Origin: Nitrososphaerota archaeon
Lineage (GTDB): Archaea; Iainarchaeota; Iainarchaeia; Iainarchaeales; GCA-2688035
Direction: 5' to 3'
Length of the DNA: 48,347 nt
Assembly (NCBI GenBank): GCA_017610265.1
Contig: JAFCCH010000006.1
Coordinates: forward strand, 1-48,347
Shown here: one piece after another, positions 4,909 through 28,519 of the stretch
How positions within the stretch are numbered: position 1 is the stretch's first letter
Layout of the letters: each line of letters starts with the position of its first letter
Notes under the pieces: generated by a model
What the model saw: only the letters and a program-made list of their open reading frames with translations
Database searches by the model: none
Told to the model about the DNA's origin: nothing
Made by a program: the position numbers and the translations under genes

Positions 4909-5559
4909 TCAGGCTTCTTTTACTTCAAAGCACTCGCAGTATTGCCCCACACCAGACATTACTCCCCTAAACCTGTTCAAGCCAATAGCTGCCTCGTCAT
5001 ACTTGATGTCCTTTACCTGTGACTTAAAACATTTAATAGCCTTAATTTTTTTCGAAACCGTTTTTGAGATGTCCTCAAAGTGCTCAGGCTCCTGAATAGG
5101 AGTCCAGGTTTCATAGAGAAAAACCTTTTCAGTTCTCCAAGGGGTTTTGCCTGCAGAACCATGCCATGGCCCGGAAGCCTTCCAGACAGAATCAAGAACA
5201 AGCTCTGTTGTGATTCTGTGGTCACGATGCTTGTCACTTTCATAGGGCGCAAAGACAAGGCCTGGCTTTTCCTGCCTTATAATTTTAATAATACTCTGCC
5301 TGTTTTTCTGATTGAATTCAAGAAAGCCATCTGGCTCTCCCAAAAAAACTGTTTTTTTGACTCCAAGAATTTTGGCAGCTTTCTTGACTTCCTCTTTTCG
5401 CGCTTTTGCAAGCTTTTTTTCAGGAATTGAAATACTCCCCCCTCCACCGCTGGTCATGTAAACAACCACAATCTTGTTTTTCTTTGCAAGCTTTGCAATT
5501 GTTCCACCGCAACTAATTGCCGCGTCATCAGGATGAGGTGCAAAAACCAAAACATTCAT
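4909..5559 (-). CDS. PIG-L / LmbE family N-acetylglucosaminyl deacetylase
   Basis: 'MNVLVFAPHPDDAAISCGGT' plus 'HRDH' are the family zinc-binding motifs. I place the start at ATG 5559 (MNVLVF...). The ORF track starts 21 nt upstream at a TTG (5580). Confidence 0.8.
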   Translation of the reverse strand: MNVLVFAPHPDDAAISCGGTIAKLAKKNKIVVVYMTSGGGGSISIPEKKLAKARKEEVKKAAKILGVKKTVFLGEPDGFLEFNQKNRQSIIKIIRQEKPGLVFAPYESDKHRDHRITTELVLDSVWKASGPWHGSAGKTPWRTEKVFLYETWTPIQEPEHFEDISKTVSKKIKAIKCFKSQVKDIKYDEAAIGLNRFRGVMSGVGQYCECFEVKEA

Positions 5560-5651
5560 TTTAACATAAAGGATTTCCAAATTTTTAAGGGTTTCTAATT
5601 GGAAAGAACGCTTTTAGCAATATTTAAGAACGAGAAAGCGGTTACTATATA

Positions 5652-10235: not shown

Positions 10236-10261
10236 AACAGAGCAGTTTTTACTGCTCTGTT
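10236..10261. terminator. perfect 11-bp-stem hairpin between convergent genes (bidirectional terminator candidate)
   Basis: AACAGAGCAGT-tttt-ACTGCTCTGTT. It is preceded by an A-run and contains a T-run. The right arm overlaps the stop codon (10249-10251) of the minus-strand gene. Confidence 0.6.
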
Positions 10262-11700
10262 ACTGCTGTTGGACTTACATCTACTTCTTTTGTCAGAGTT
10301 GCCAACAAAATATTTGACCCATCTTTGTAGAACTCTGCCACCAAAGTATATGTTCCCGGATTGACAGAATAGAAAAAGTTTGTATTATAGTTTTTGTACT
10401 CAACATCTTCTACTGTCATGTATAGGCTAGACGAACTTGTTGTTGTACTTATTAGTTTGCCGTCGCCGTTCACCAAATTAAACTTGGTATAGTACTCAAC
10501 CCTTTTATCTGTTTGAGTTGTGTTACTCAACTTTAGCTCTACTTTGGAAACTGAGTCTCCCTTGGAATTTAGAGTAACCTTGTTGTATTCAACTTTTACA
10601 TCGCTTAAGGTCACACTGCTGTTTGCTTCAAACTCTTGAGCAGACCTTTCAGCAAATATTACAGTTGTTGCTGCAGGCCCTATTTCTACTTCTTTTGTTA
10701 TGCTTGCCAACAAAATATTTGACCCATCCTTGTAGAACTCTGCCACCAAAGTATATGTTCCCGGATTGACAGAATAGAAAAAGTTTGTATTATAGTTTTT
10801 GAACACAATGTTTTGCACATTCATATACAAAGAACTTGTGGCATTCGTAACACTTACTGTTTCTCCAGTCTCATTCACAATTAGGAATTTTGTGTAGTAT
10901 TCAACCCTTTGCTCAAAATCGGTTTTGTTAACCAATCTAAGCACTACTTGGTCTATTCCACTTCCGTTTGAGTTCAACGAAACTTTGTCGTAGGAAAGAG
11001 TTACATCACTGATGGTGACTTCGCTTGCTTCAACAGGCTCCTCTTTTACCTTAGGTGCTCGAATTACTGTTTCTTCACTTGGCCCAATTTTAATGCGTTT
11101 TGTTAAAGTAGCCAAAACTTCTTCAGATTCACTGCTGATGAAAAACTCTGTTCGCAGATCATATTCGCCTGATGATACTACTTCCAAACTGCCGGTAGTG
11201 AATTTCTTGAAACCAATATTTGTTACATTTTGATAGAGTGAAGATTTGCTGTTTGTTTCACTTACTGCTTCACCACCGGTATTCAAAAGAGTGAACTTTA
11301 CATAGTATTCAACTCTTTTTTCCAATTCGGTTTCGTTTGTTAGCCTAAATATTACATTCTGCACACCGTTGCCGTTAGAATTCAATTCAATCCGGTCGTA
11401 CAAAACAGTTACATCGCTAATTTTAACCTGCGGCTCGTCTGAAAGATTTGGACCTGGACCAGGACCGGGTTCTTCCTGAACAATGCAGGCAATCGAACAG
11501 CATTGGTCACTATCGCTTGTGGTTAGCAAGGCCCCTGTACATTCTTGTTCCCCTGTGCAAACAGACCCATTTTGTTCTGCGCATGTTTTTATCTCAGGAG
11601 TTGACCCAGGACCTGAATCCGGGTCTGTACTTGGTTCAACACAACCTGAAAACAGGATGGCCAAAAAAATAAGTACAATAACTACATATTTAGTTTTCAA
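10249..11700 (-). CDS. secreted/lipid-anchored surface protein with a Cys-rich module and three ~135-aa tandem repeats
   Basis: Signal peptide with a lipobox-like 'ILFSGC'. A Cys-rich stretch 'CAEQNGSVCTGEQECTG...DQCCSIAC' and a PGPGPGP linker follow. Then come three repeats of the pattern 'V.(I/L)SDV.(V/L).Y(D/N)(R/K)(I/V).LNS(N/K)G.(G/S)...V.(F/L)(R/K)L.N.T...KRVEYY.KF.L.N..GE..S.TN..SSLY'. SD 'ggaggag' upstream on the minus strand. Confidence 0.7.
   Translation of the reverse strand: MKTKYVVIVLIFLAILFSGCVEPSTDPDSGPGSTPEIKTCAEQNGSVCTGEQECTGALLTTSDSDQCCSIACIVQEEPGPGPGPNLSDEPQVKISDVTVLYDRIELNSNGNGVQNVIFRLTNETELEKRVEYYVKFTLLNTGGEAVSETNSKSSLYQNVTNIGFKKFTTGSLEVVSSGEYDLRTEFFISSESEEVLATLTKRIKIGPSEETVIRAPKVKEEPVEASEVTISDVTLSYDKVSLNSNGSGIDQVVLRLVNKTDFEQRVEYYTKFLIVNETGETVSVTNATSSLYMNVQNIVFKNYNTNFFYSVNPGTYTLVAEFYKDGSNILLASITKEVEIGPAATTVIFAERSAQEFEANSSVTLSDVKVEYNKVTLNSKGDSVSKVELKLSNTTQTDKRVEYYTKFNLVNGDGKLISTTTSSSSLYMTVEDVEYKNYNTNFFYSVNPGTYTLVAEFYKDGSNILLATLTKEVDVSPTAVTEQ
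10281..10396 (-). repeat. intragenic near-identical DNA repeat, copy A (partner 10686-10801)
   Basis: About 116 nt matching 10686-10801 with roughly five mismatches, at an offset of exactly 405 nt (135 codons). The remainder of the protein repeats is much more diverged. Confidence 0.85.
10686..10801 (-). repeat. intragenic near-identical DNA repeat, copy B (partner 10281-10396)
   Basis: See copy A. Both encode '...YNTNFFYSVNPGTYTLVAEFYKDGSNILLA(S/T)(I/L)TKEV'. Confidence 0.85.
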
Positions 11701-11754: not shown

Positions 11755-11778
11755 TATAAAGATTTGTATAAAGATTTG
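11755..11778. repeat. 12-bp tandem duplication 'tataaagatttg' x2 in a divergent promoter region (duplicated TATA-like box)
   Basis: Perfect direct repeat 11755-11766 / 11767-11778, followed by 'taaataaa'. It lies between divergently transcribed genes (start 11700 on the minus strand, start 11854 on the plus strand). Confidence 0.6.
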
Positions 11779-11853
11779 TAAATAAATCAAAAAGGAATTT
11801 CACCGGAAGTCCACCATCCAAACCAGCTTATTTGTAAAAACCCTATTTTTTGG

Positions 11854-13003: not shown

Positions 13004-13765
13004 TTGAACACAATAAAAGACATGGTTCTTCTATGGATTTTGCTTGCGACAATTGCAAACAGTTTTTTGGCGCTTGCGGGCGCAGTAACATTGGGGTGGA
13101 GCAAAAAAACACTCGAACGAATTTTGCATGCATTGGTTGGCTTTAGTGCAGGAGCATTATTGGGCGGTGCATTCTTCCACCTTATTGCAGAATCTCTTGA
13201 AAAAATGCCAACAATGGAAACATTTTACCTCGTTTTTGCAGGATTTATCCTGTTCTTCCTGATTGAAAGATTTTTGCACTGGCACCATTGCCACAAAGGC
13301 AAATGCGATGTGCATGTTTTTTCTTATTTAATTCTTGTGGGAGATGGCATTCACAATTTTATTGATGGCCTTATAATTGCGGCAAGCTTTCTGATAGATA
13401 TTAAGGTAGGAATTGTGACAACAATTGCTGTAATGAGCCATGAATTACCCCAAGAGCTTGGCGATTTTGGAGTCCTCGTTTACGGCGGCTTTAGCAGGAA
13501 AAAAGCCTTGTTATACAATTTTGCCTCACAGCTTACAAGCGTTGCAGGCGGTATAGTTGGCTTCTTTTTTCTTGGCACAAGTGGTCTTGCTGTTTACCTT
13601 TTGCCTTTTGCGGCAGGGGGCTTTATTTACATTGGAGCCTCTGATTTGATTCCTGAACTGCACAAGCAGGAAAACATGAAAAAAGCAATGACTGCATTTG
13701 TGTTTTTCCTGGTTGGAATAGGCTTTATGATTGGAGTAAAGTTGTTTTTTGAAGGAGCTCAATGA
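13004..13765 (+). CDS. ZIP family divalent-metal transporter (ZupT-like)
   Basis: Eight predicted TM helices. 'HELPQELGDFGVL' and 'HNFIDGL' are the conserved ZIP metal-binding helices, and the loop 'HWHHCHKGKCDVH' is His/Cys-rich. TTG start at 13004; alternative ATG at 13022. Confidence 0.8.
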   Translation: MNTIKDMVLLWILLATIANSFLALAGAVTLGWSKKTLERILHALVGFSAGALLGGAFFHLIAESLEKMPTMETFYLVFAGFILFFLIERFLHWHHCHKGKCDVHVFSYLILVGDGIHNFIDGLIIAASFLIDIKVGIVTTIAVMSHELPQELGDFGVLVYGGFSRKKALLYNFASQLTSVAGGIVGFFFLGTSGLAVYLLPFAAGGFIYIGASDLIPELHKQENMKKAMTAFVFFLVGIGFMIGVKLFFEGAQ

Positions 13766-13792: not shown

Positions 13793-13821
13793 TTTAAATA
13801 CTATTATGAACATATGTTCAT
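13793..13821 (+). promoter_or_regulatory. TATA box (tttaaata, 13793-13800) followed by a perfect 16-bp palindrome ATGAACATATGTTCAT (13806-13821) abutting the DUF134 start codon
   Basis: Read directly. The palindrome is its own reverse complement and ends 1 nt before ATG 13823. TATA-to-ATG spacing of about 25 nt suggests a leaderless or short-leader mRNA with the operator over the TSS. Confidence 0.6.
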
Positions 13822-13822
13822 T

Positions 13823-14125
13823 ATGGCTAGGCCAAAAAAGACAAGATTTGTTGCATGCAATCCAGAGGCAACTTACTTCAAGCCAAGGGCAATTCCCTTA
13901 TTTGAATTAGAAGAAGTTGTGCTTAAATTAGAAGAAATTGAGGCATTAAAGCTGAAATTTTTGGAAAAATGCGAGCAGGAAGAGGCAGCAAAGAAAATGA
14001 AGGTAAGCAGAACAACCTTTTGGCGAGTGTTTAACAGCGCTGGAAAAAAAGTTGCAGATGCATTGATTAACGGCAAGGCCATTAGGATTGAAGGAGGGCA
14101 TTATGCCCTTAAAAAGGAGGTATAA
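13823..14125 (+). CDS. DUF134 (UPF0251) family putative DNA-binding protein
   Basis: 'MARPKKTRFVACNPEATYFKPRAIPL...LEEVVLKLEEIEALKL...QEEAAKKMKVSRTTFWR' matches the DUF134 N-terminal box plus its sigma-70 region-4-like HTH. Start moved to ATG 13823 (track: 13814). Confidence 0.75.
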   Translation: MARPKKTRFVACNPEATYFKPRAIPLFELEEVVLKLEEIEALKLKFLEKCEQEEAAKKMKVSRTTFWRVFNSAGKKVADALINGKAIRIEGGHYALKKEV

Positions 14126-14128
14126 AAA

Positions 14129-14284
14129 ATGCCTGGAAGAGGAAGAATGGGCGGATTTGGAATGGGACTGGGAGGCAACTGCGTTTGCCCAAATTGTGGA
14201 GCAACAGCAGCACACCAGCGAGGAATGCCCTGCACTCAGCAAAAATGCCCAAAATGCGGAAGCACAATGACAAGAGAAAGGTAA
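14129..14284 (+). CDS. unlisted 51-aa protein: Gly/Arg/Met-rich N-terminus plus CxxC...CxxC zinc ribbon
   Basis: My translation: MPGRGRMGGFGMGLGGNCVCPNCGATAAHQRGMPCTQQKCPKCGSTMTRER. A strong SD 'aggagg' (14115-14120) lies 8 nt upstream. It starts 3 nt after the DUF134 stop. It falls below the 60-aa cutoff of the ORF track. Confidence 0.6.
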   Translation: MPGRGRMGGFGMGLGGNCVCPNCGATAAHQRGMPCTQQKCPKCGSTMTRER

Positions 14285-14334: not shown

Positions 14335-15519
14335 ATGAATAAACTTGAAAAAGCAGCAGTTATTTCCGTAATTGGAAACGCATTTGTTTCAGTAATCAAA
14401 TTTGCAGCAGGAACAACGTTTGGCTCTGTTGCATTGGTGGCCGATGCAATCCACTCTTTTACCGACATAATCGGAAGCATTGCAGTTTTCTTTGGAGTAA
14501 GGTTTGCTGATGTCAAAAGTGACAAATTCCCTTACGGTTTGTACAAACTTGAAAACTTTGTAAGCCTTTTTATTGCGCTTATAATTTTTTGGTCAGGAAT
14601 TGAAATTGCCTTGGAATCAATTGCAAAGCTTGGCTCTCCAACCCAAATAACAGGATTTGAAGCAATAATTGTTGCAATTGTTGCTCTTGTAATTGTTTAC
14701 GCACTTGCAAAATACAAGGAAAAAATTGGCAAAGCAGAGCACAGCCCAAGCATGATTTCAGAGGCAAAGCACAGCATGCTTGACGCATATGGCAGTGTTG
14801 GTGTTGTTGCGGCCCTTGGTTTAAGCTTTGCAGGCTTTCCAATATTTGATCCTTTAATAGGAGTTATTATTTCGGTTCTTGTATTCAAAGCAGGCTTGGA
14901 AATTTTTATGGATTCAACAAAGGTTTTGCTTGACATAAGCCTTGATTACAAAACAATGAAAAAAATTGAAAAAATTGCCACAGCACAAAAGGGCGTTAAG
15001 GTAAAGGAAATTCTTGCAAGAAACAGCGGCCGATACATCTTTGTTGATATAATGCTCGAAACAGGTTTGAAGGACTTGAAAAAAGTTGACAAGCTGCACA
15101 GGCAGTGCGAAACAGACATAAGGAAAGCAGTGCCAAGGATTGACAAGATAATGGTTGACATTCACTACAAGAAAAAGCCAGTGCTTGTTTATGCAATTGC
15201 ATTGGAGAAAAGAAGTGAAAAAAGCTCTATTGCGATGGAATTTGGAACCGCAAAATTTTTCGGCGTTTTTAAGGCCGAAAATAGAGCAGGAAAAGGCGGG
15301 CTTATTGAAAGCAAAATAATTGAAAATCCGCATTGCAAAAACGAGGAAAGGAAAGGAATTCTTGCGGCAGAGCTTCTTGCAAAAAACAATGTTGATGTGC
15401 TTTTTAGTAGGGAAAAAATGCGAAAAGGCGGTGCCTTTTATGCATTACAGGAAAGTTTTGTTGAAATGAGAAAAACCGAGAAAAAAACATTTAATAAATT
15501 GCTGGAGGAATTCAAGTAA
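14335..15519 (+). CDS. cation diffusion facilitator (CDF) metal efflux transporter fused to a C-terminal NifX/NifB-like (Nitro_FeMo-Co) domain
   Basis: Residues 1-290 are a CDF: 'VISVIGNAFVSVIKFAAG...VALVADAIHSFTDIIGS', 'HSMLDAYGSVGV', and a cytoplasmic CTD 'ILARNSGRYIFVDIMLE'. Residues ~295-394, 'VYAIALE..SSIAMEFGTAKFFGVFK....IENPHC....GILAAELLAKNNVDVLFSREKMRKGGAFYALQESFVEM', follow the NifX-like pattern (HFG.A..F...ENP...G...A..L...vdvvi...G..A...L). Confidence 0.6.
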   Translation: MNKLEKAAVISVIGNAFVSVIKFAAGTTFGSVALVADAIHSFTDIIGSIAVFFGVRFADVKSDKFPYGLYKLENFVSLFIALIIFWSGIEIALESIAKLGSPTQITGFEAIIVAIVALVIVYALAKYKEKIGKAEHSPSMISEAKHSMLDAYGSVGVVAALGLSFAGFPIFDPLIGVIISVLVFKAGLEIFMDSTKVLLDISLDYKTMKKIEKIATAQKGVKVKEILARNSGRYIFVDIMLETGLKDLKKVDKLHRQCETDIRKAVPRIDKIMVDIHYKKKPVLVYAIALEKRSEKSSIAMEFGTAKFFGVFKAENRAGKGGLIESKIIENPHCKNEERKGILAAELLAKNNVDVLFSREKMRKGGAFYALQESFVEMRKTEKKTFNKLLEEFK

Positions 15520-15543: not shown

Positions 15544-15864
15544 ATGCCCTTGGCTTTTTTTGGAGAAATTTTAATGATTGAAAATGAAACAATTAATTTG
15601 GTTGGATTTGTCATTCTTGCTTTTTCATTAATATTTGCTTACACAGGAACCCTTTCCCAATGCACTTACAGGAAATATATTGTTCCTGCAATGCTTTTGG
15701 TTATAGCAGTAATATTTTTACAGGAAATGATTGCAGCTTTAATGATTGCGGTTTCAGCCACATTGTTTTACAGTGGATATAAAGGATATGGAATTGAAGT
15801 CAAAAAAAAAGAGGCAGAAAAAACAAAAAATGAAACAAAGGAAGAAAAAACGGAGGAGATTTAA
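15544..15864 (+). CDS. small membrane protein (2-3 TM) with Lys/Glu-rich tail
   Basis: Hydrophobic ORF tightly packed between the CDF and NifX-like genes. The start is uncertain (alternative ATG at 15574). Confidence 0.4.
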   Translation: MPLAFFGEILMIENETINLVGFVILAFSLIFAYTGTLSQCTYRKYIVPAMLLVIAVIFLQEMIAALMIAVSATLFYSGYKGYGIEVKKKEAEKTKNETKEEKTEEI

Positions 15865-16434
15865 ATGAAGGTAGCAATTAGCGCCGTATCAGAAGATTTG
15901 AAACAGCCTGTAAACCTTGTTTTTGGAAGGTGCCCAGGCTATGTTATAGCTGAAATTGAAGGAAAAGAAGTAAAGGAAACAAAGTTTGTGCAAAATCCCG
16001 GAATGAACACAGGAATGGGAGCAGGAATTGCTGCAGCACAAGTAGTTGCAGGGCAAGGCGCACAGGCAGTTATTAGCGGCAATGTAGGGCCAAACGCGTT
16101 CATGGTTTTGCAGCAGTCGGGAATAAAGGTTTATAAAGTAGCAGATTTGAGTGTAGAGCAGGCATTAAAGCAGTTTGCTGACGGGAAGCTTGAAGAAGTA
16201 AAGGACTCAACTGCACCAGGCCACTTTGGAATGGGCCAAGGTCAAGGAACGGGCCAGGGCGCAGGAAGAGGCGCTGGAGCAGGAATGGGCCAAGGTCAAG
16301 GAACGGGCCAGGGGGCAGGAAGAGGCGCTGGAGCAGGAATGGGCCAAGGAAGAGGAACAGGAATGGGCCGAGGTGCCGGAGCTGGTGCAGGCAGAGGAAC
16401 AGGCGCAGGTCGCGGAAGAGGTCCGCCAATGTAA
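15865..16434 (+). CDS. NifX/NifB-like (Nitro_FeMo-Co domain) protein with ~70-aa Gly/Arg/Gln/Met-rich repetitive C-terminal tail
   Basis: 'MKVAISAVSEDL...VFGRCPGYVIAEIEGKEV...QNPG...GAGIAAAQVVAGQGAQAVISGNVGPNAFMVLQQSGIKVY' is a canonical NifX-like domain. The tail is 'GMGQGQGTGQGAGRGAGA' x2, then GMGQGRGTGMGRGAGAGAGRGTGAGRGRGPPM. Confidence 0.8.
   Translation: MKVAISAVSEDLKQPVNLVFGRCPGYVIAEIEGKEVKETKFVQNPGMNTGMGAGIAAAQVVAGQGAQAVISGNVGPNAFMVLQQSGIKVYKVADLSVEQALKQFADGKLEEVKDSTAPGHFGMGQGQGTGQGAGRGAGAGMGQGQGTGQGAGRGAGAGMGQGRGTGMGRGAGAGAGRGTGAGRGRGPPM
16228..16335 (+). repeat. 54-bp coding tandem repeat x2 (1 mismatch), decaying into degenerate G/R-coding repeats to ~16430
   Basis: Unit ggaatgggccaaggtcaaggaacgggccagggcgcaggaagaggcgctggagca at 16228-16281 and 16282-16335. 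Confidence 0.9.
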
Positions 16435-16448
16435 AAGGAGGTTTTAGT

Positions 16449-16826
16449 ATGAAGGTTGCGATTTCAACAGATTCAGGAAGAGTGGCGGAGCATTTTGGAA
16501 GATGCCCACAGTTCACAATTGCAAAAATAGAAAAAGGAAAAATTGTAAAAAAAGAGGTTATTGAAAATCCAGGGCATGCAACAGGATTTTTGCCAAAGTT
16601 TTTCAAAGAACAAGGCGTTGAGATAGTAATTGCAGGCGGTGCAGGAATGAGGGCCCAGCAGTTTTTTGAAGATTTTGGAATAAAACTTGTTGTTGGAGTT
16701 TCAGGAAACATTGATGATGCATTGCAGGCACTTGCCCAAGGAAAGCTTGAGGGCGGAGAAGGCAGCTGCAGCCCTGGAGCAGGAAAAGGATACGGAATTC
16801 CAAAAGAAGACGGGCACGGCGAATGA
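16449..16826 (+). CDS. NifX/NifB-like (Nitro_FeMo-Co domain) protein
   Basis: 'MKVAISTDSGRVAEHFGRCPQFTIAKIEKGKIV..EVIENPGH..GFLPKFFKEQGVEIVIAGGAGMRAQQFFEDFGIKLV'. SD 'aaggagg' upstream. Confidence 0.8.
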   Translation: MKVAISTDSGRVAEHFGRCPQFTIAKIEKGKIVKKEVIENPGHATGFLPKFFKEQGVEIVIAGGAGMRAQQFFEDFGIKLVVGVSGNIDDALQALAQGKLEGGEGSCSPGAGKGYGIPKEDGHGE

Positions 16827-17473
16827 AATTAAAAATTTTGGTAGACAACCAGGCAATGCCTGGTTTTAAGCAAGAATGGGGATTCAGCTGCCTTATTGAA
16901 GCAAAGGAAAATGTTTTGTTTGATACAGGAACAAGCCCTGATGTCCTAATGTTTAATGCAGAAAAGTTTGGCGTAAAGCCAGAGCAAATAGACAAAGTTG
17001 TTTTGTCACACGACCATTTTGACCACACAGGAGGCCTTGAATGGATTTTGCAAAATCCCAAAGTTAAGGTTTTTGCGCTGGATTCATTTTCTGATAAAAC
17101 AAAACAGAGAATTAAGGAAGAGGCTGAATTGGTTGAGGTAAACAAACCTGTTGAAATAAGCAACGGCATTTTTTCTACAGGAAAACTAAGCAATTCAATT
17201 GACGAGCAGTCTTTGGCATTGAAAACAGAAAAAGAAATTGTTGTTTTGACAGGGTGCTCCCACTCTGGATTGGAAAAGATTTTGGAAAAGGCTGGAGAGC
17301 ATGGAAAAATTCACGCAGTAATTGGTGGCTTTCACGGCTTTAAAAAATTCGATGTGTTAAAAGGAATTAATTTAATTGCAGCAACACATTGTACCGAACA
17401 CAAGAAAGAAATTCAGAGGCTTTTTCCAAAGGCTTTTGCCGAATGTGCTGCAGGAAAGGAATTTGAATTCTGA
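16823..17473 (+). CDS. MBL-fold metallo-hydrolase (MJ0301/COG1237-like)
   Basis: 'KILVDN...GFSCLIEAKENVLFDTGTSPDVL...IDKVVLSHDHFDHTGGLEWIL' with the HxHxDH-type motif. ATGA start/stop overlap with the upstream gene. Confidence 0.75.
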   Translation: MKLKILVDNQAMPGFKQEWGFSCLIEAKENVLFDTGTSPDVLMFNAEKFGVKPEQIDKVVLSHDHFDHTGGLEWILQNPKVKVFALDSFSDKTKQRIKEEAELVEVNKPVEISNGIFSTGKLSNSIDEQSLALKTEKEIVVLTGCSHSGLEKILEKAGEHGKIHAVIGGFHGFKKFDVLKGINLIAATHCTEHKKEIQRLFPKAFAECAAGKEFEF

Positions 17474-19154: not shown

Positions 19155-19916
19155 ATGGACAAAATAAAGTTAGAAGGAATTGGGAAAAAAATTGCAGTGG
19201 TCAGCGGAAAAGGAGGGACAGGAAAAAGCACCTTTTCTGCATTGCTTGCATTGAGTTTGGCAGCCAAAGGAAAAAAGGTTGGATTGCTCGACATTGATGT
19301 TCACGGACCAAATATTCCGCTGTTGCTTGGAATTGAAGGAAAAAAGATGGGTATTGGCGAGAATAAAAAATTATTGCCTGTTGAGGCTGCACCAAACTTG
19401 AAGGTTGTTTCCACAAGCTTTATGCTTGAAAAAGAACAGGCTTTGATTTGGAGAGGTCCAATAAAGTCAAATTTTATTAGGCAATTAGCAGAGCAAACTG
19501 ATTGGGGCGAACTTGATTTTCTTATTGTAGATACCCCGCCAGGAACAGGCGATGAAATAATCACTTTAACACAATTAATTGATTTAACAGGCACAATAAT
19601 TGTTGGAACACCTCAGGCTGCCGCAGTTTATGATGTAAGAAAATCCATTGATGCAATGAGGTCAACTAAAGTAAAGATTTTGGGATTGGTTGAAAATATG
19701 AGTTATGTTGTTTGCCCAAAATGTGGTGAAATAATAGACTTGTTTGGAAAAGGGGAAATAAAAAAGCTGGCTGAAAAAGAAAAAATTGGTTTTTTTGGAG
19801 GCATGCCACTTGATCCAAAATTGAGAAAAATGACGGATGTGGGAAAAATTGAGCTGAAAAGCATTGAAAAGGAAATTACTGATTTGTTAACCAAGATAAT
19901 TAAAAGCATTGAATAA
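19155..19916 (+). CDS. Mrp/NBP35/ApbC family Fe-S cluster carrier ATPase
   Basis: Deviant Walker A 'VVSGKGGTGKST', 'LLDIDVHGPNIP', 'LIVDTPPGTGDE', and the 'CPKCG' cluster-ligand motif. Confidence 0.85.
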   Translation: MDKIKLEGIGKKIAVVSGKGGTGKSTFSALLALSLAAKGKKVGLLDIDVHGPNIPLLLGIEGKKMGIGENKKLLPVEAAPNLKVVSTSFMLEKEQALIWRGPIKSNFIRQLAEQTDWGELDFLIVDTPPGTGDEIITLTQLIDLTGTIIVGTPQAAAVYDVRKSIDAMRSTKVKILGLVENMSYVVCPKCGEIIDLFGKGEIKKLAEKEKIGFFGGMPLDPKLRKMTDVGKIELKSIEKEITDLLTKIIKSIE

Positions 19917-20442: not shown

Positions 20443-20928
20443 ATGCAAAAAATAGTGTATAAGCCAATAGGAATAATTCATTCAAGCTACAAGCAAGTAG
20501 AAGGAGTGCCTATACAGGGTGCGCTGTCAAAAAATTCCAAGGGTGAAGTAGAGGTTTTTCCAGAGTATAAAGCAGGCTTAAAGGACCTTGAAGGATTTTC
20601 ACATATTATCCTGCTTTACCATTTTCATTTGGCAAAAGGATATTCTCTGTTAAGCAGGCCTTTTTTGGAAAATAAAAAACATGGAATTTTTGCAATCAGA
20701 GCGCCAAAAAGGCCGAATCCCATAGGATTCTCGGTAGTTAAATTAGAAAAAATAACTGGAAATCTGTTGTATATAAACGAAGTTGATATTGTTGACTACA
20801 CAATTTTGCTGGACATTAAACCATATGTTTCAAAATTTGATGTTAGAACAGGCACAAAAGACGGTTGGCTAACAAAAAAAATAATGGACGACAGAGAACA
20901 CAAAGCTGATAACAGATATAGCCCATAA
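20443..20928 (+). CDS. TsaA/TrmO family (UPF0066) SAM-dependent methyltransferase
   Basis: 'YKPIGIIHS...EGVPIQ...EVFPEYKAGLKDLEGFSHIILLYHFH...GIFAIRAPKRPNPIGFSVVKL...VDIVDYTILLDIKPY' is collinear with the TrmO family. Confidence 0.75.
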   Translation: MQKIVYKPIGIIHSSYKQVEGVPIQGALSKNSKGEVEVFPEYKAGLKDLEGFSHIILLYHFHLAKGYSLLSRPFLENKKHGIFAIRAPKRPNPIGFSVVKLEKITGNLLYINEVDIVDYTILLDIKPYVSKFDVRTGTKDGWLTKKIMDDREHKADNRYSP

Positions 20929-21471: not shown

Positions 21472-22281
21472 ATGAAGATAAAAAAATTAACTATTTTTCC
21501 AGGTCGTGGCAAACAGGGAAAAAAAGAAGATTTTGAAAAAATCGAGATTTTGGCCGGGCAAAAAATAGGGATTGTTGGTCCAACAGGTTCGGGAAAAAGC
21601 CAATTGCTGTACGATATTGAAAAGCTTAGCCAGGGAGAAACAAAGACCGGGCGAAAGATTTTGATAAACGATAACAAAGTGCAAAAACACCTTAAAACAG
21701 ATCCGGCAAGGAAAATAATTGGTTATTTAACCCAGCATATGAATTTTATGACAGATACGACTGTCCAAAATTTTTTGGAAACCCATATAATGACAAGGGG
21801 TCGACACAGGTCAGAGGAAAACACCAAAGAGCTTGTTGAAAAGATAATAGAGGCTGCAAACACAATAACAGGTGAGGAAATCAGCAAGAATACGAATTTG
21901 CTTATTTTATCAGGGGGGCAGTCAAGAGCATTAATGGTTGCAGATCTTGCATACGTCAGCGAATCACCCATTATCTTAATAGATGAAATAGAAAATGCAG
22001 GTATAAGAATTCGTGAAGCCCTTAGCCTTCTTATCAAAAAGGGAAAAATAGTTTTTTTGGTTACTCATGACCCAATTCTTGCTTTGGATACTGACAAACG
22101 ACTTGTTATGAAAAGAGGAGCCATAAGCAACATTATTTACACTTCGATTAAGGAACGGGGGATTGCAAACTATCTCTCTTGGATTAACAACTACCTTTTA
22201 GATGTAAGGGAAGAAGTAAGAAAGGGAAAAAAGGTTGAAGAATTGAGACTAATATGCACGCCTGTGGGGGAAGAAAAATGA
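21472..22281 (+). CDS. stand-alone ABC-type ATPase (no permease partner in the window)
   Basis: Walker A 'GIVGPTGSGKSQ', signature 'LSGGQSRAL', Walker B 'ILIDEIEN', H-loop 'VTHD'. ATG 21472 lies 7 nt after SD 'aggag', which directly follows the trx stop. The track start is TTG 21457. Confidence 0.7.
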   Translation: MKIKKLTIFPGRGKQGKKEDFEKIEILAGQKIGIVGPTGSGKSQLLYDIEKLSQGETKTGRKILINDNKVQKHLKTDPARKIIGYLTQHMNFMTDTTVQNFLETHIMTRGRHRSEENTKELVEKIIEAANTITGEEISKNTNLLILSGGQSRALMVADLAYVSESPIILIDEIENAGIRIREALSLLIKKGKIVFLVTHDPILALDTDKRLVMKRGAISNIIYTSIKERGIANYLSWINNYLLDVREEVRKGKKVEELRLICTPVGEEK

Positions 22282-23069
22282 AAATGATAATCTTTGGTGG
22301 CACGCCAGGAAGCGGAAAAACAAGTGTAATCAAATTTGTAATGCAGGAACTGAAAGACTTAAGCATTCATTATGCAAAATTTGATGTCCTGACCACAGAA
22401 GACCACTTGCTAATAAAAGACAAGTTTGGAATAAACACCGAAAAGAAAATATCTGGAGAAATATGCCCAGACCATTATGCTGCACTTGAAATCCCAAAAA
22501 TCGTTGAAAAGCACAAAAACAAAGACCTAATTATAATAGAAACAGCCGGACTTTGTCTAAGGTGCTCACCGTACATAAACGAAGGGCTTGCAATCAATAT
22601 CTTGAACATTTTGGCAGGAAAGCCTTCGAGTTATGGTCCACTATTAACACACGCTGACGTAGTAGCTACAACTAAGGGCGACCTGATTTCACAAGCAGAA
22701 AGGGAAATCTTCAGGTCGGAAGTTCTAAAAGTTGCCAAAAACGCTTCAATAATTGAAGCAAATGGCCTAACAGGAGAAGGTGCGATTGACATAGCAGAGG
22801 CAATAAAAGAAAGTCCTGAAATAAAAGGAAAACTTACCTTGAAGCATTCCATGCCAACCGCTGTCTGCGGATACTGTTATGGAAACAAAACAATCGATTC
22901 AGAAGAAACATTAAAGCGTTACTCGCTCGGTAAGGAATTGAAAGCAAGGATTCCAAATTTGAACTGCGGAAAATGTGGATTCAAATCATGCAACGAATTC
23001 ATAAGAGCGGTTTTGGATGAAAAAGTTAATGAAGATAAGTGCCCTTACTTAGAAGACAAGAAGGAATAG
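22278..23069 (+). CDS. G3E-family (HypB/UreG/CobW-like) P-loop NTPase fused to a C-terminal CX2CX4CX16C 'putative Fe-S cluster' domain
   Basis: 'MKMIIFGGTPGSGKTS', 'LIIIETAGLCLRCSPY' (compare HypB 'ENVGNLVCP'), and 'TKGDL' (NKxD-like). The C-terminal 'LNCGKCGFKSCNEFIRAVLDEKVNEDKCPYL' is the 4Fe-4S domain type seen in RnfB and corrinoid Fe-S proteins. ATGA overlap with the upstream stop. Confidence 0.65.
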   Translation: MKMIIFGGTPGSGKTSVIKFVMQELKDLSIHYAKFDVLTTEDHLLIKDKFGINTEKKISGEICPDHYAALEIPKIVEKHKNKDLIIIETAGLCLRCSPYINEGLAINILNILAGKPSSYGPLLTHADVVATTKGDLISQAEREIFRSEVLKVAKNASIIEANGLTGEGAIDIAEAIKESPEIKGKLTLKHSMPTAVCGYCYGNKTIDSEETLKRYSLGKELKARIPNLNCGKCGFKSCNEFIRAVLDEKVNEDKCPYLEDKKE

Positions 23070-23469: not shown

Positions 23470-24030
23470 ATGATTAAGGTATTCAAAAATAAATGCGTTG
23501 GTTGCGGAATCTGCAAAAGCGTATGCCGTGAAGGGATAGAAATAGTAGATGGGATAGCAAGAATAAAAAATAGTGGGGCTGATTGTTTAAAAAATGCCGC
23601 AAGTGCTTGCCCACAAAAGGCAATAAAAGAAATTGAACAAGATTTATTGTTTGCAGTTGGAACAGACGATAATGAAACAATAAAATCAAATGACCATGTT
23701 GGAATGTCAAAATATTTTCAAGTATGGGCATATTCAGAAGGAGAATTAACTTTTAAAGAAAAAAGAGAAAATGCCAAGTACAAAGAAGAAAATGAAAGAA
23801 TTCATGGAGACCCGGGCAAAGCTAAAGCAACATCATCTGTTTTAACAGGCATTGATGTTTTAGTGGGAAAAATGTTTGGTCCAAACATTGTCAGGTTAAA
23901 AAATAAATTTGTTTGTGTTGTAGTTAGAGAGCCAGAAATCAAAAAAGTAACAGAAATAATTAAAGAAAACATTAATGAAATAGCTGAAGAATACGATAAA
24001 AAGGAAAGAGTTGGCATAATCTTAAAATAA
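23470..24030 (+). CDS. 4Fe-4S ferredoxin domain fused to a NifX-like (Nitro_FeMo-Co-type) domain
   Basis: N-terminal 'CVGCGICKSVC....DCLKNAASACP'. The C-terminal part, 'LLFAVGTDDNETIKSNDHVGMSKYFQVW...GIDVLVGKMFGPNIVRLKNKFVCVVV', follows the NifX-like topology more loosely than the other three copies. Confidence 0.5.
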   Translation: MIKVFKNKCVGCGICKSVCREGIEIVDGIARIKNSGADCLKNAASACPQKAIKEIEQDLLFAVGTDDNETIKSNDHVGMSKYFQVWAYSEGELTFKEKRENAKYKEENERIHGDPGKAKATSSVLTGIDVLVGKMFGPNIVRLKNKFVCVVVREPEIKKVTEIIKENINEIAEEYDKKERVGIILK

Positions 24031-26801: not shown

Positions 26802-27635
26802 ATGAAACAAATTGCGATTACAGGAGGCAAGGGAGGAACAGGCAAAAGTACTGTTGCCACAGCTCTGGCAGTAGAGCTTGGAAAAAGCCACAAAGTTTTG
26901 CTTGTTGACGCAGATGTTGACTGTCCAAACGACCACTTACTTTTAGGAATTGAAAGGAAACCGTTGAAAAAGGTTTTTCAAAGGATTCCAAAATGGGATT
27001 TTGAAAAATGCATAAAATGCGGAAAATGTGCCGAAGCATGCAAGATCAATTCCATTTTTGCCCCCAAAGGAAAACAGCCTGTTTTTCTGCCACAGCAATG
27101 TAATGGATGCGGAGCATGTGTTATAACCTGCCCTGCAAAGGCAATAGGCTGGAGTGAAAAGGAAATTGGAGAAGTTTTCAAAGGAAAGGGATATGGCATT
27201 GACTTTATTTCAGGCGAATTAAAAATAAACGAGGCTGTTTCCGAATTTGTTGTCGCATCCTTGAAAGAAGAGGTTGAAAAGATCAAGGAAAGCTATGATT
27301 TTGTCTTGTTTGATACAGCCGCCGGAACTCACTGCGATGTTATTTCAGCATTGGAGGGGTCAAAAATGGCTTTGGCTGTCACAGAGCCAACGCCTTTGGG
27401 AGAGCATGACCTTGAATTAATTATGAAGCTTTTGAAAAAGCTCGGCATAAAATTTGAAATTATTTTAAACAGGTTTGAAAAAGGCGGAAAAAAAATTATT
27501 GAAAATTCAGCAGAAAGACAAGGTAAAACAATTGCTGCAAAAATACCTTACAGTAAAAAAATAATGGAAAGTTACAGCAAGGGAATTCCTGTAAGCCATG
27601 AAAGCATTAAGGCAATTGCGGAGCTGGTTAAATGA
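26802..27635 (+). CDS. MinD/ParA-type P-loop ATPase with inserted 2x[4Fe-4S] ferredoxin domain
   Basis: 'IAITGGKGGTGKSTVA', 'VDADVDCPN', then 'CIKCGKCAEACK' and 'CNGCGACVITCP', followed by the remainder of the MinD fold. Confidence 0.85.
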   Translation: MKQIAITGGKGGTGKSTVATALAVELGKSHKVLLVDADVDCPNDHLLLGIERKPLKKVFQRIPKWDFEKCIKCGKCAEACKINSIFAPKGKQPVFLPQQCNGCGACVITCPAKAIGWSEKEIGEVFKGKGYGIDFISGELKINEAVSEFVVASLKEEVEKIKESYDFVLFDTAAGTHCDVISALEGSKMALAVTEPTPLGEHDLELIMKLLKKLGIKFEIILNRFEKGGKKIIENSAERQGKTIAAKIPYSKKIMESYSKGIPVSHESIKAIAELVK

Positions 27636-28519
27636 AAAAAATAACTGTTTTGTCAGGCAAGGGTGGAGTAGGCAAGAGCAGCATTGCGGCATCGCTTGCT
27701 GTTTTGCTTGCCGAGAAACACAAAATTGTTTGCGCTGACTGCGATGTTGACGCTTCAAACCTTGCGCTTGTGTTTGGGTTAAGGGAAAAGGATTTTGACG
27801 AATGGAAAAAAATTTCAACAAACGAGAAAGCAAGGCTTGATGAAGGAAAGTGCAATGGCTGCAAAAAATGCGTTGAAAGCTGTTACTTTAATGCAATCAA
27901 ATGGAATGAGGAAAAAAAGCAGCCTATTTTTGACGAGTTTTCCTGCGAGGGCTGCGGAGCATGTGAAATCACCTGCCCTGAAAAGGCAATAAGCCTTGTT
28001 CAGGTTGAAAATGCAAAAATCGGTTATGGGAAAACAAAATACGGTTTCACAGTTGTTTCAGGCCAACTTGAAATGGGCGAATCAGGTTCAGGAAAAGTTG
28101 TAGCAGAGGTAAGAAAGCTTGCCGAAGAAAAAGGCAAGGGCGCAGAAATTATGGTAATTGATGCCGCAGCAGGAATAGGTTGCCCTGTAATTGCATCAGT
28201 TGTCGGAAGCGATTTTGTTATAGGAGTAACAGAGCCAACCCCTTCAGGCCTTTCTGACTTGAAAAGGGCATTGCAGATGACAAGACATTTTGGAATTGAA
28301 TGCGGAATAGTGATAAACAAACACGACCTAAATCCAGAAATGTCAAAAACTATTGAAAAATTTGCAGAAGAAAATTCAATGCCTGTTTTGGCAAAAATAG
28401 GCTATGACAAAAACTTTGTTAATGCATTGGTTAACCTTGTGCCAATAATAGAATACAACCCAAAAATAAGACCTGTTTTTGAGGAAATCCTGCAAAAACT
28501 GCCAACAGGAAAGAAATAA
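27632..28519 (+). CDS. MinD/ParA-type P-loop ATPase with inserted 2x[4Fe-4S] ferredoxin domain (second paralog)
   Basis: 'ITVLSGKGGVGKSSIA', 'CADCDVDASN', 'CNGCKKCVESC' and 'CEGCGACEITCP'. ATGA overlap with the upstream paralog. Confidence 0.85.
   Translation: MKKITVLSGKGGVGKSSIAASLAVLLAEKHKIVCADCDVDASNLALVFGLREKDFDEWKKISTNEKARLDEGKCNGCKKCVESCYFNAIKWNEEKKQPIFDEFSCEGCGACEITCPEKAISLVQVENAKIGYGKTKYGFTVVSGQLEMGESGSGKVVAEVRKLAEEKGKGAEIMVIDAAAGIGCPVIASVVGSDFVIGVTEPTPSGLSDLKRALQMTRHFGIECGIVINKHDLNPEMSKTIEKFAEENSMPVLAKIGYDKNFVNALVNLVPIIEYNPKIRPVFEEILQKLPTGKK

Follow-up and report, generated by a model that had tools for sequence, protein, structure and literature searches.

A cation diffusion facilitator fused to an MTH1175/IssA-type IPR003731 domain, carried by many anaerobes, points to metal homeostasis as the job of NifX-like domains

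The DNA analysed here (hereafter, the window) is a stretch of 48,347 nucleotides, contig JAFCCH010000006.1, from an archaeal genome whose nearest relatives are Iainarchaeota MAGs (DPANN). [quoted passage not shown] The initial annotation had described this same arrangement and, indeed, the ORF, the Pfam domains and each of the motifs that it quoted (EFGTAKFFGVF, IENPHC, GILAAELLAKNNVDVLF and GGAFYALQ) are present in the translation. The fusion gene belongs to a same-strand run that comprises, in this order, the genes for a ZIP importer, a DUF134 protein, a zinc-ribbon peptide, the CDF fusion, a membrane peptide, an IssA-type protein, a NifX-type protein and a metallo-beta-lactamase-fold (MBL) protein, and this run sits within a 17-kb stretch of Fe-S-handling genes.

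Table 1. Genes and domains at the fusion locus, in coordinates of the window.
Feature	Coordinates	Strand	Evidence
ZIP-family metal importer, two genes upstream of the fusion	13004..13765	+	PF02535, E 2.5e-42; weak ZupT match
DUF134 protein	13814..14125	+	PF02001, E 2.5e-26
51-aa protein with Gly/Arg-rich N-terminus and CxxC...CxxC zinc ribbon, encoded directly before the fusion	14129..14284	+	weak zinc-ribbon matches
Fusion gene, 394 aa plus stop	14335..15519	+	ORF; Pfam and NCBIfam; 119 full-length relatives
CDF transmembrane domain, residues 1-199	14335..14931	+	PF01545, TIGR01297, AF2 model, Foldseek
Cytoplasmic CTD (ZT_dimer), residues 204-278	14944..15168	+	PF16916, model, residue mapping
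Fused MTH1175/IssA-type IPR003731 domain, residues 282-394	15178..15516	+	PF02579, profile against PDB, model, Foldseek, conservation
106-aa hydrophobic protein with Lys/Glu-rich tail	15544..15864	+	ORF
IssA-type protein, 189 aa: IPR003731 domain plus 77-aa cationic Gly/Arg-rich tail	15865..16434	+	PF02579, E 1e-21
Second stand-alone IPR003731 protein, with HFGRC motif and acidic tail	16449..16826	+	PF02579, E 6e-21
Metallo-beta-lactamase-fold protein; start overlaps the end of the preceding gene	16823..17473	+	Pfam
Mrp/NBP35-type Fe-S carrier ATPase	19155..19916	+	PF10609, E 3.6e-88

The N-terminal part of the protein scores above the cutoffs of both Pfam Cation_efflux (PF01545, residues 9-199, E 1.3e-42, 146.3 bits versus 26.6) and the curated NCBIfam model for CDFs (TIGR01297, 198.7 bits versus 82.35), and its AF2 model displays six long helices and retrieves YiiP and ZnT structures in Foldseek. 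Residue mapping places D45/D49/H153/D157 of YiiP over H40/D44/H146/D150, indicating an intact transport site A formed by H40 and D44 in TM2 and by H146 and D150 in TM5; the H/D/H/D set is kept across 115 sequences with only four exceptions, and no His-rich run occurs in any of these 115 fusion members. None of the NCBIfam equivalog cutoffs was reached, the scores being 135.3 for MamM and 134.2 for MamB (cutoff 350 for both), 110.6 for MntE (500), 100.1 for FieF (420) and 67.8 for ZitB (408). Fe/Zn-CDFs were described as having HxxxD in TMD V and a His in TMD II, and the FieF-like and WmFieF-like clusters as being devoid of His-rich regions (PMC1868760). From the composition of the H40-D44/H146-D150 site, the lack of His-rich loops and the identity of the nearest models (MamM, MamB, MntE and FieF), we infer that the fused CDF probably transports Fe2+ or Zn2+. 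The CDFs whose structures have been solved work as proton-coupled homodimers, and by analogy we assume the same for this transporter.

The CTD was recognized by PF16916 (ZT_dimer) at residues 204-276, with 27.7 bits versus a cutoff of 26.7, and its helix and strand elements were modelled over residues 205-278. Relatives in clade B keep the site-C-like ligands H252, H275 and E277. In clade A, which includes the protein from the window, the equivalents of YiiP site C are K222, M240, D252, D275 and H277, so that Lys/Arg and Asp/Glu pairs stand in for the site-C histidines; D275/H277 in the window, or [D/E]-x-[E/D] across its clade, align with H275/E277 of the other clade. Because the equivalents of the site-C histidines (H252 and H275), and also the histidine of the HFG motif in the extra domain (see below), are all replaced in this clade, metal sensing in the window's own protein may be different or lost.

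The initial annotation considered the last ca. 100 aa to be NifX-like. As a single sequence this region gives only marginal matches, both to PF02579 (Nitro_FeMo-Co, residues 297-393, 30.3 bits versus a cutoff of 26.3) and to MTH1175 (1EO1, E 0.005). A profile built from 38 C-terminal domains nevertheless retrieved from the PDB MTH1175 (1EO1, E 6e-13), TM1816 (1O13, E 2e-11) and 1T3V (E 7e-11), and no NifX, NafY or NifB chain at E ≤ 1. The full-length AF2 model (pTM 0.49) retrieves only CDF structures in Foldseek, and the extra domain was thus modelled alone for fold matches. For residues 279-394, the AlphaFold model reached pLDDT 93 and pTM 0.86, and its best PDB matches, with TMq of 0.61-0.75, are TM1816 (1O13), orange protein (ORP, 2WFB), PH0822 (2YX6), TM1290 (1RDU), NifX (9IAN_F), Ta1041m (2RE2) and MTH1175 (1EO1). 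TM values are about 0.7-0.75 with TM1816, ORP and PH0822, and the match with NifX (TMq 0.61) is weaker than those with MTH1175-type proteins. Profile and model therefore agree with the annotation in that the region is predicted, confidently, to adopt a real IPR003731 (NifX/NifB-superfamily) fold, and in sequence its nearest kin appears to be MTH1175 and not NifX or NafY. MTH1175 falls in the clade of IssA, a protein that binds thioferrate and stores Fe-S; IssA proteins are recognized by a cationic Gly-rich C-terminal tail, with pI ≥ 9, fewer than 5 Cys and at least 20% Gly in the last 40 aa (PMC5524996 and its supplement). The fused domain has a pI of 9.5 and one Cys, yet only 5% Gly in its last 40 aa and no tail.

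Conservation of the fused domain is strongest in the [H/E]FG, NP and KG-I motifs, D354 and Y369; these are largely the motifs shared with stand-alone members in the profile alignments, which suggests that a pocket has been retained. The first motif is E302-F-G-T305 in the window and H-F-G-E in other clades, and N331-P332 and G341 are likewise conserved. Of the 25 stand-alone neighbours in which the relevant site could be placed, 19 have the xFG-R(C) motif, whereas Arg never occupies the corresponding position in the fused domain, which has Glu or Asp in clade B and Thr, Leu or Ser in clade A. The characterised IPR003731 members all bind metal-sulfur species, namely NifB-co/FeMo-co, thioferrate, a Mo-Cu-S cluster in ORP and a [3Fe-4S] cluster in MrpORP, whose IPR003731 domain is dimeric (PMC6345978 for the last two). 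With the xFG-R(C) motif missing and replaced by HFG-E or EFG-T, and with Cys usually absent, the fused domain perhaps does not bind anionic Fe-S species, and may instead bind a cation or a protein partner.

The junction between the two parts of the protein reads through in frame, and the IPR003731 domain begins four residues past the last CTD strand, right where YiiP has the residues of its regulatory metal site C. The length of the junction is identical, without indels, in 115 out of 115 full-length relatives. Besides, the fusion is carried by all 119 relatives among the matches listed, which derive from many independent assemblies, and by 78 of 80 genome loci, including those in complete genomes of cultured strains. 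Evolutionary distances of the CDF half and of the domain half correlate with r = 0.95, a value that was reached by none of 500 Mantel permutations; the two halves, therefore, co-evolve. A missed stop codon or a frameshift could also have merged two genes, a possibility against which the initial annotation advised a check and which an A-rich stretch (AAGAAAAAG ... GAAAAAAG) close to the junction could favour. It has virtually no likelihood in view of the number of relatives and independent assemblies with the same indel-free junction and of the co-evolution of both halves, and we reject it for practical purposes. Because of the invariant junction length, the high correlation between halves and a subfamily of domains that appears to be specific to CDF fusions, the CDF and its extra domain are probably rigidly coupled.

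Many strict anaerobes, both archaeal and bacterial, have the same CDF plus NifX-like fusion, and the named carriers all belong to anaerobe lineages; those in culture include Sporomusa ovata DSM 2662, Dehalobacter restrictus, Parasporobacterium paucivorans and Methanoculleus species. Far from being rare, the architecture is common in public data, where it goes by the generic label of cation diffusion facilitator family transporter. Profile matches of ca. 110–160 aa were considered as stand-alone versions of the fused domain and rejected, because several of the eight that we inspected keep the IHYEP sequence from the end of the CTD and are fragments of fusions. In our literature search we found no paper describing the fusion, in line with the initial annotation, which knew of no characterisation of the architecture. 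One publication includes both "CDF" and "NifX", yet it deals with a magnetochrome-NifX/NifB protein (PMC4287615), and another reports a CDF gene from ANME-2a located beside 4Fe-4S, NifX-family and P-loop genes, for which nickel uptake was speculated, without describing a fusion (PMC12622379). In all, this is a widespread family with only generic annotations and for which we found no characterisation.

Two stand-alone Nitro_FeMo-Co genes lie downstream of the fusion, at 346 and 930 nt, as originally noticed, and in hhalign both products align with the fused domain over its entire length (E about 1e-9). The product of the first one has a pI of 9.72, a single Cys and 48% Gly in its last 40 aa, and we call it IssA-type by these published feature criteria, rather than by direct alignment with IssA from Pyrococcus furiosus (PF2025) or by phylogeny; its tail is encoded by a 54-bp tandem repeat at positions 16228-16391. 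The second product matches the C-terminal domain of MrpORP with 93.6 bits. The zinc-ribbon protein encoded immediately upstream of the fusion is homologous to the C-terminal end of the IssA-type neighbours from three other loci (L036, L037 and L073). The 106-aa hydrophobic protein has no family match, and its conservation is confined to L001 and L002, the closest relatives. The window also holds, together with the Mrp/NBP35 gene, those for paired MinD-Fer4 ATPases (MinD-type, with 4Fe-4S inserts).

A Pfam survey of 267 flanking ORFs did not reveal any universally conserved neighbourhood, and neighbours of a NifX-like, IssA-like or metal-related type are missing from ca. 80% of the loci that we examined. 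A stand-alone IPR003731 gene is found within 3 kb of the fusion in 13 of 81 loci, about 11 of them coding for cationic Gly-rich tails. These 13 loci belong to Iainarchaeota, Desulfobacterota and "Vecturithrix", and there is an additional locus from Halobacteriota with the gene at 3.4 kb; an adjacent IssA-type gene, with the same domain and tail, recurs in four distant lineages. Fe-S-handling genes also recur, with MinD-Fer4 in 9 loci, Mrp in 8, MBL in 10, TrmO_N in 8 and DUF134 in 10. Shikimate kinase genes (9 ORFs) look like lineage-specific neighbours, the locus checked being from Methanoculleus. Feo, ferritin, DtxR, Mod/Tup and molybdopterin genes were not found among the flanking ORFs surveyed.

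Metal importers are another type of neighbour. A ZIP gene is also near the fusion in L002, L003 and L049, with L067 added in one listing; the count for ZIP is 4 loci. In Dehalobacter, the fusion gene occurs together with those for a ZnuA-type ABC importer and a Fur-family regulator, and in Desulfotomaculum with those for a ZnuABC-type importer and a radical SAM protein. The best score for the Dehalobacter binding protein is with the model for the zinc protein AztC, below its cutoff, and the regulator scores 94 bits with Fur, 86 with PerR and 32 with Zur, all below cutoffs. ZIP and ZnuABC neighbours suit Zn as well as Fe.

The reading that we tentatively favour is that the protein exports Fe2+ or Zn2+ and that its fused domain senses the cytoplasmic metal-sulfur pool or takes metal from it. 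The CDF part would export divalent metal from the cytoplasm, while the two extra domains would hang in the cytoplasm beneath the apex of the CTD dimer and act as a sensing or hand-off module, coupling export to the state of that pool. They might do so by binding metal directly, with His and Glu in most members and Glu and Asp in the window's clade, or by docking the stand-alone IssA-type or NifX-type proteins that are encoded beside the gene in several lineages. A link between the local NifX-like proteins and the transporter, already proposed in the initial annotation, gains from their adjacency in four distant lineages; of the two directions that it contemplated, receipt of metal from the transporter is the less likely, because CDFs export from the cytoplasm and the fused domain is cytoplasmic. 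Hand-off at the membrane may be the form that this link takes; against it, around 80% of the loci have no NifX-like neighbour. The proposal can be made more specific, as a so far unrecognised iron-sulfide homeostasis system, widespread in anaerobes, in which IssA-type thioferrate stores, and also other stand-alone NifX-like proteins of non-diazotrophs, would be coupled to a dedicated exporter, with the fused domain reading the load of cytoplasmic Fe-S species or receiving metal from them and the CDF expelling the surplus, but in this complete form we consider it clearly unlikely.

An ordinary detoxification CDF for Zn (or Co/Cd), in which the extra domain would be a cation buffer or sensor without any tie to Fe-S, and the NifX-like neighbours a coincidental gene island of anaerobes, is a serious though somewhat unlikely alternative. 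In its favour, HD-HD is the classic site A of Zn-CDFs, a ZIP gene is upstream in the window and in three other loci, two Firmicutes have a ZnuA-type importer next to the fusion, with AztC as the best partial match, and HFG-E supplies His and Glu as cation ligands where the Arg and Cys of stand-alone proteins are absent. It is harder to reconcile with the lack of the His-rich loops that most Zn-CDFs have, with nearest models that are iron and manganese types and not ZitB or CzcD-like, and with a Dehalobacter regulator that is much closer to Fur and PerR than to Zur. The repeated adjacency of IssA-type genes in four distant lineages and the exclusive occurrence of the named carriers among anaerobe lineages also argue against it, as does the scarcity of free Zn2+ in sulfidic habitats.

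Alternatively, the extra domain could bind no ligand at all and be a dimerisation or stability module, or a passive docking platform, that compensates for a degenerate metal site in the CTD. The IPR003731 domain of MrpORP is, after all, a dimer, and the fused domain begins where the CTD ends, right on the site-C residues, whose histidines gave way to Lys/Arg and Asp/Glu pairs in the window's clade, and has lost the xFG-R motif. This becomes improbable when considering that clade B retains H252, H275 and E277 and still has the domain, and that the most conserved positions are largely shared with stand-alone members, which suggests a retained pocket.

Handling of thiometallates or heterometallic sulfide clusters (Mo/W/Cu), as done by ORP, rather than of iron or zinc, is very improbable. 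ORP ranks second among the structural matches (TMq 0.71), and the paired MinD-Fer4 ATPases and the Mrp/NBP35 protein from the window resemble products of the ORP operon; however, the sequence match with ORP is weak (E 0.04), Mod, Tup and molybdopterin genes are missing from the neighbours surveyed, and CDFs carry divalent cations, not oxy- or thio-anions. Finally, a role as carrier of nitrogenase cofactors (FeMo-co/NifB-co), like that of NifX or NafY, which is evoked by the Pfam family name and by the structural match with NifX in the NifEN complex (9IAN_F), has a negligible probability, as the initial annotation had argued, because no nitrogenase family was matched among the 31 window ORFs scanned, the sequence profile does not reach any NifX, NafY or NifB chain, and the closest relatives of the window are from Iainarchaeota, a DPANN lineage in which we know of no nitrogen fixation.

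Explanations of CDF regulation have until now relied on the CTD and on His-rich loops, and an added cofactor-type domain, attached with unvarying spacing to the regulatory metal site of the CTD, would represent a new mode of gating. Organisms without nitrogen fixation have plenty of IPR003731 proteins, whose roles are poorly understood, with IssA, ORP and MrpORP among the few characterised cases. The conserved fusion to an exporter, together with the adjacency to IssA-type, importer and Fe-S-carrier genes, is a testable clue that NifX-like proteins participate in metal or metal-sulfur homeostasis; in other words, the fusion suggests that these domains work in metal homeostasis and not in nitrogen fixation. 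The published accounts of iron and sulfur handling in methanogens that we consulted cover uptake and storage, and we did not find an efflux step in them. If the reading of iron-sulfide homeostasis were true, the fusion would supply this missing step to Fe/S models of methanogens and other anaerobes, and would provide a first concrete function for a large family of enigmatic NifX-like paralogues. The existence of cultured carriers makes experiments on the fusion feasible.

Among known systems, FieF/YiiP and MamB/MamM, from the Fe/Zn group of CDFs (TC 2.A.4), share with the fusion the six helices, the four-residue site in TM2 and TM5, the ZT_dimer CTD and the lack of His-rich loops, and they give its best matches in sequence, profile and structure comparisons, although with scores far below every equivalog cutoff. 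Unlike them, the fusion has an additional IPR003731 domain of ca. 113 aa after the CTD. In comparison with YiiP, it also contains HD-HD instead of DD-HD in site A and, in the TM2-TM3 loop, the family-specific motif FPYGLYKxEN in place of the site-B histidines.

As for the extra domain, IssA from Pyrococcus furiosus and the tail-less MTH1175 are members of the same domain family, but the fused version differs from IssA in lacking the cationic Gly-rich tail, in having Glu or Thr for the Arg of xFGR and in being tethered to a membrane transporter. For the stand-alone neighbours in the window, IssA, with its thioferrate storage of Fe-S, is a better comparison than NifX. ORP has the same fold as the fused domain, and its gene cluster in Desulfovibrio includes the same kinds of partner genes that we found in the window (MinD-type ATPases with 4Fe-4S inserts and Mrp/NBP35); to our knowledge, no transporter has been described in the ORP complex. 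P1B-type ATPases are metal exporters whose N-terminal HMA domains, similar to soluble chaperones, regulate or feed the pump; they belong to an unrelated transporter family and have an unrelated domain fold, and are therefore an analogy only. Precedents come from soluble proteins. NifB is a radical SAM protein with a NifX-like domain. It shows, together with MrpORP, which contains an Mrp/NBP35 ATPase and a C-terminal IPR003731 domain (PMC6345978), that this domain can be fused to a cluster-handling partner, mainly in anaerobes. The fused domain described here lacks the Cys/His motifs CxHFGHCE and CDH of MrpORP, and its partner is a membrane transporter instead of a soluble ATPase or a radical-SAM enzyme.

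The fusion gene is a single ORF of 394 aa with an ATG start, and Pfam divides its product into Cation_efflux (residues 9-199, E 1.3e-42), ZT_dimer (residues 204-276, 27.7 bits, barely over the cutoff) and Nitro_FeMo-Co (residues 297-393, 30.3 bits, the cutoff being 26.3). The protein matches the NCBIfam model for CDFs (TIGR01297) with 198.7 bits, and no specific NCBIfam equivalog. Because the match of the fused C-terminal domain was marginal on one sequence, we subjected it to three further tests: a family profile, a structural model and a structure search. A profile built from 38 C-terminal domains of relatives matched MTH1175 (1EO1, 6e-13), TM1816 (1O13, 2e-11) and 1T3V (7e-11) in the PDB, besides PH0822 and TM1290; its match to the orange protein was weak. 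AlphaFold modelled residues 279-394 confidently (pLDDT 93, pTM 0.86), and the top PDB matches of this model were TM1816, ORP, PH0822, TM1290, NifX from the NifEN complex, Ta1041m and MTH1175 (TMq 0.61-0.75), followed by generic RNase-H-like folds with TMq below 0.45. In the full-length model (pLDDT 80.8), six long helices are followed by the cytoplasmic C-terminal domain (CTD) and then by the extra domain; this model resembles YiiP and ZnT structures. ORF, Pfam and model thus agree with the initial annotation of one ORF encoding a CDF plus an extra domain, and profile and fold bear out the NifX-like nature it assigned to the C-terminus. Likewise, the two stand-alone NifX-like genes it had placed downstream both encode Nitro_FeMo-Co proteins, each aligning over the entire fused domain (hhalign E ~1e-9).

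Many independent assemblies contributed to the 120 best database relatives (32-88% identity, ~395 aa), and BLAST shows the C-terminal domain in all 119 other than the window's own protein, even in those for which precomputed Pfam annotation had overlooked it. The junction has identical length in 115/115 full-length members, which speaks against a missed stop or frameshift. At least 574 pattern-matched stretches in species-representative genomes encode a relative; of the best 80, which we examined, 78 carry the domain and the remaining two end at contig edges. Among the carriers listed, Iainarchaeota come closest (77%); other archaeal carriers are ANME-1, ANME-2, Methanosarcinales, Methanoculleus, Methanothrix and Methanolinea, and the bacterial ones include Sporomusa ovata DSM 2662, Parasporobacterium paucivorans, Dehalobacter restrictus, Desulfobacterota, Caldisericales, Aminicenantes and Chloroflexota, all of them anaerobe lineages. 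Pairwise distances over the CDF part correlate with those over the extra domain at r = 0.95 (0.80 and 0.97 inside the two clades), and 0/500 Mantel permutations reached r = 0.95; this fits a single ancient fusion that has since been passed on whole, by descent or by transfer. An artefact joining two genes was rejected, given the many independent assemblies, the invariant junction and the co-evolving halves. A search with the fused-domain profile retrieved 300 representatives (clustered at 50% identity) with E <= 1e-10. Of the short matches that we inspected, several begin with the CTD-terminal IHYEP and are thus fragments of fusions, and the domain subfamily appears specific to CDFs.

Alignment to Escherichia coli YiiP places the transport site (site A) at H40 and D44 in TM2 and H146 and D150 in TM5, a tetrad that is near-invariant across the 115 members. 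The site-B histidines of YiiP are absent from these members, which have the family-invariant loop motif FPYGLYKxEN in their place, and His-rich runs were found in 0/115. HxxxD in TMD V is common to Zn- and Fe/Zn-CDFs, Mn-CDFs having DxxxD; the TMD II histidine occurs also in Fe/Zn clusters, and His-rich regions typify Zn-CDFs, FieF-like clusters being devoid of them (Montanini et al. 2007, PMC1868760). Among the partial NCBIfam matches, MamM/MamB score highest, followed by MntE, FieF and ZitB. Together, the HD-HD site, the lack of His-rich runs and the partial scores indicate Fe2+ or Zn2+ as the most likely substrate, and the sequence favours neither over the other.

The 115 members divide into clade A (52; at least 45% identity to the window protein, Iainarchaeota-like) and clade B (63; methanogens, ANME and bacteria). 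Clade B retains equivalents of site C, the regulatory CTD metal site of YiiP, at H252 (YiiP H261), H275 (YiiP H283) and E277 (YiiP D285), has E/S at 222 and N/D/E at 240, and carries H302-F-G-E305 as its domain motif. Clade A has K/R at 222, K at 240, D/S/N at 252, D/E at 275, E/D at 277 and the motif [E/D]302-F-G-T305, and the window protein K222, M240, D252, D275, H277, E302 and T305. Clade A has therefore lost all its putative His ligands, in site C and in HFG, in a coordinated manner and gained Lys/Arg at 222 and 240, a change that could reflect salt bridges in place of a metal site, or an altered ligand or metal preference.

By sequence, the fused domain is nearest to MTH1175, a member of the IssA clade (Vaccaro et al. 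2017, PMC5524996). Pyrococcus IssA is a store of Fe and S in the form of thioferrate; the IPR003731 domain by itself binds Fe and S, and the cationic Gly-rich tail of IssA was proposed to wrap the thioferrate polymer (PMC5524996). Other characterised IPR003731 members likewise bind metal-sulfur species: NifB, NifX and NafY bind NifB-co and FeMo-co, ORP binds a Mo-Cu-S cluster, and the dimeric C-terminal domain of MrpORP holds a [3Fe-4S] cluster (PMC6345978). None of the 31 window ORFs scanned matched a nitrogenase family which, with the proximity to MTH1175, upholds the earlier argument against a nitrogenase-type role. The motif xFG-R(C/A), presumably lining the binding pocket, occurs in 19 of the 25 stand-alone neighbours where it could be placed; the fused domain has HFG-E-A or EFG-T-A, with Arg never at that position and Cys usually missing, so that its ligand may be a cation or another protein instead of an anionic cluster.

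Genes and sequence features around the CDF fusion, in the window unless another locus is named
Feature	Position	Strand	Remarks
483-aa protein	10249-11700	-	hydrophobic N-terminus, Cys-rich stretch, three internal ~130-aa repeats; region's only long minus-strand gene
Perfect 12-bp tandem repeat TATAAAGATTTG	11755-11780		2.2 copies, between the divergent flanking genes
Radical SAM with HhH	from 11854	+
ZIP importer	from 13004	+
DUF134	from 13814	+
51-aa peptide	14129-14284	+	Gly/Arg-rich N-terminus, CxxC...CxxC zinc ribbon, MTRER end; directly upstream of fusion
CDF fusion	14335-15519	+
106-aa membrane peptide	from 15544	+
IPR003731 protein, 189 aa	15865-16434	+	77-aa Gly/Arg tail (Pfam)
Tail repeat (GQGxGxGAGRGAGAGM)n	16228-16391		54-bp tandem repeat, ~3 copies
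Second IPR003731 protein	16449-16826	+	Pfam
MBL-fold protein	from 16823	+
Pyridine-nucleotide disulfide oxidoreductase	from 17790	+
Mrp/NBP35	from 19155	+
TrmO_N-like protein (tRNA methyltransferase O N-terminal domain)	20443-20928		downstream of fusion
Thioredoxin			downstream of fusion
ABC ATPase			downstream of fusion
CobW/HypB/UreG-type metallochaperone GTPase	22254-23069		C-terminal PF04060 putative Fe-S cluster (FeS) domain; downstream of fusion
Fer4 + Nitro_FeMo-Co fusion	23470-24030		downstream of CDF fusion
SLAC1/TehA channel			downstream of fusion
Two adjoining MinD/CbiA-type ATPases	26802-27635, 27632-28519		each with inserted two-[4Fe-4S] ferredoxin domain
IssA-type proteins, Desulfobacterota	L036:6767-7360, L037:202-795, L073:3429-3980		tail ends in zinc ribbon
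Nitro_FeMo-Co + NifU/IscU scaffold fusion, Dehalobacter restrictus	L081:16303-17133
Weak DUF364 match, metagenomic contig (Logan assembly)	L086:4285-5004		overlaps fusion start by 4 nt

The genes around the fusion are closely packed on one strand, in a window that encodes split RNA polymerase B, A' and EF-2 and is thus archaeal. The 189-aa neighbour has the three features published for the IssA clade (pI 9.72, 1 Cys, 48% Gly in its last 40 residues), although, unlike in Pyrococcus IssA, aromatic residues are absent from those 40 residues. The MinD-type pair looks like the ATPases that bind Fe-S in the ORP complex of Desulfovibrio, and a locus of Aminicenantes has the same pair flanking the fusion. 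The 483-aa product is probably secreted or surface-exposed, and the 12-bp repeat may represent an archaeal promoter element, similar to a TATA box, that has been duplicated. Strand bias is strong throughout: long minus-strand ORFs other than 4909-5580 and 10249-11700 all overlap longer plus-strand ORFs, and cumulative GC skew climbs at every 2-kb step but one over 48 kb.

Neighbours were surveyed with a simple ORF caller in the 80 best genome loci and six further contexts. A stand-alone IPR003731 gene lies within 3 kb of the fusion in 13/81 loci (within 1 kb in 12 of them), and at 3.4 kb in a Halobacteriota locus; about 11 of these 13 proteins, from Iainarchaeota, Desulfobacterota and 'Vecturithrix', are IssA-type, bearing a cationic Gly-rich tail. 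The zinc ribbon ending this tail in three Desulfobacterota loci is the same as that of the window's separate 51-aa peptide, which looks like gene fission or fusion between lineages. In Dehalobacter, a ZnuA-type ABC importer and a Fur-family regulator precede the fusion, followed by ferredoxin, ARMT1-like, DUF134, DUF5320, MBL and a Nitro_FeMo-Co + NifU fusion; the latter, and the window's Fer4 fusion, tie the IPR003731 domain to Fe-S chemistry. The order is ZnuABC-type importer, radical SAM and fusion in Desulfotomaculum, and MBL, two MinD-Fer4, ARMT1-like, radical SAM, fusion and TrmO_N in Aminicenantes. Across 87 loci, DUF134 and MBL occur near the fusion in 10 each, MinD-Fer4 in nine, Mrp and TrmO_N in eight each, ARMT1-like in seven, ZIP in four and a ZnuABC-type importer in three. 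Most loci, notably those of ANME, Methanosarcinales and Methanoculleus, contain none of the tallied families, so the association is recurrent yet facultative. The eight TrmO_N homologues, archaeal and bacterial, lie 8-10 kb or less from the fusion, an odd place for a domain of tRNA modification. The gene with the weak DUF364 match on the metagenomic contig has a homologue near the fusion in Sporomusa ovata (locus L053); Pfam describes DUF364 as a putative heavy-metal chelation domain.

In all, an intact CDF core carries a cytoplasmic IPR003731 domain, rigidly joined at the CTD regulatory site; the two halves co-evolve, the carriers are anaerobe lineages, and genes for IssA-type proteins, for metal importers and for Fe-S carriers recur next to the fusion. 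Our leading, though tentative, reading, which we consider plausible if somewhat short of probable, is that the fusion would export Fe2+ (or Zn2+) out of the cytoplasm, while the extra domains, predicted to sit below the apex of the CTD dimer, would sense, or take metal from, a cytoplasmic metal-sulfur pool, thereby gating or feeding export, with IssA-type partners possibly docking on them. A plain zinc exporter with an added cation-binding domain is rather unlikely, and a ligand-free dimerisation or docking module is improbable. An ORP-like thiometallate role is very improbable, and a nitrogenase role or an artefact each have a negligible chance.

We found no description of a CDF-IPR003731 fusion in the literature, in keeping with the initial annotation, and the papers found to mention IPR003731 speak of neither CDF nor efflux; the architecture is common in databases, where it goes by a generic name, and we found no characterisation of it. 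One paper on ANME-2a lists a CDF gene whose neighbours are 4Fe-4S, NifX-family and P-loop genes, and remarks on no fusion (PMC12622379). IPR003731 fusions to other partners are known in NifB and MrpORP (PMC6345978), and in a magnetochrome protein of Desulfovibrio magneticus (PMC4287615). The fusion protein belongs to the CDF family and to the IPR003731 domain superfamily; it falls outside the MamB/MamM, FieF, MntE and ZitB equivalogs, it is not NifX/NafY and, because it has no tail, its fused domain is not IssA proper.
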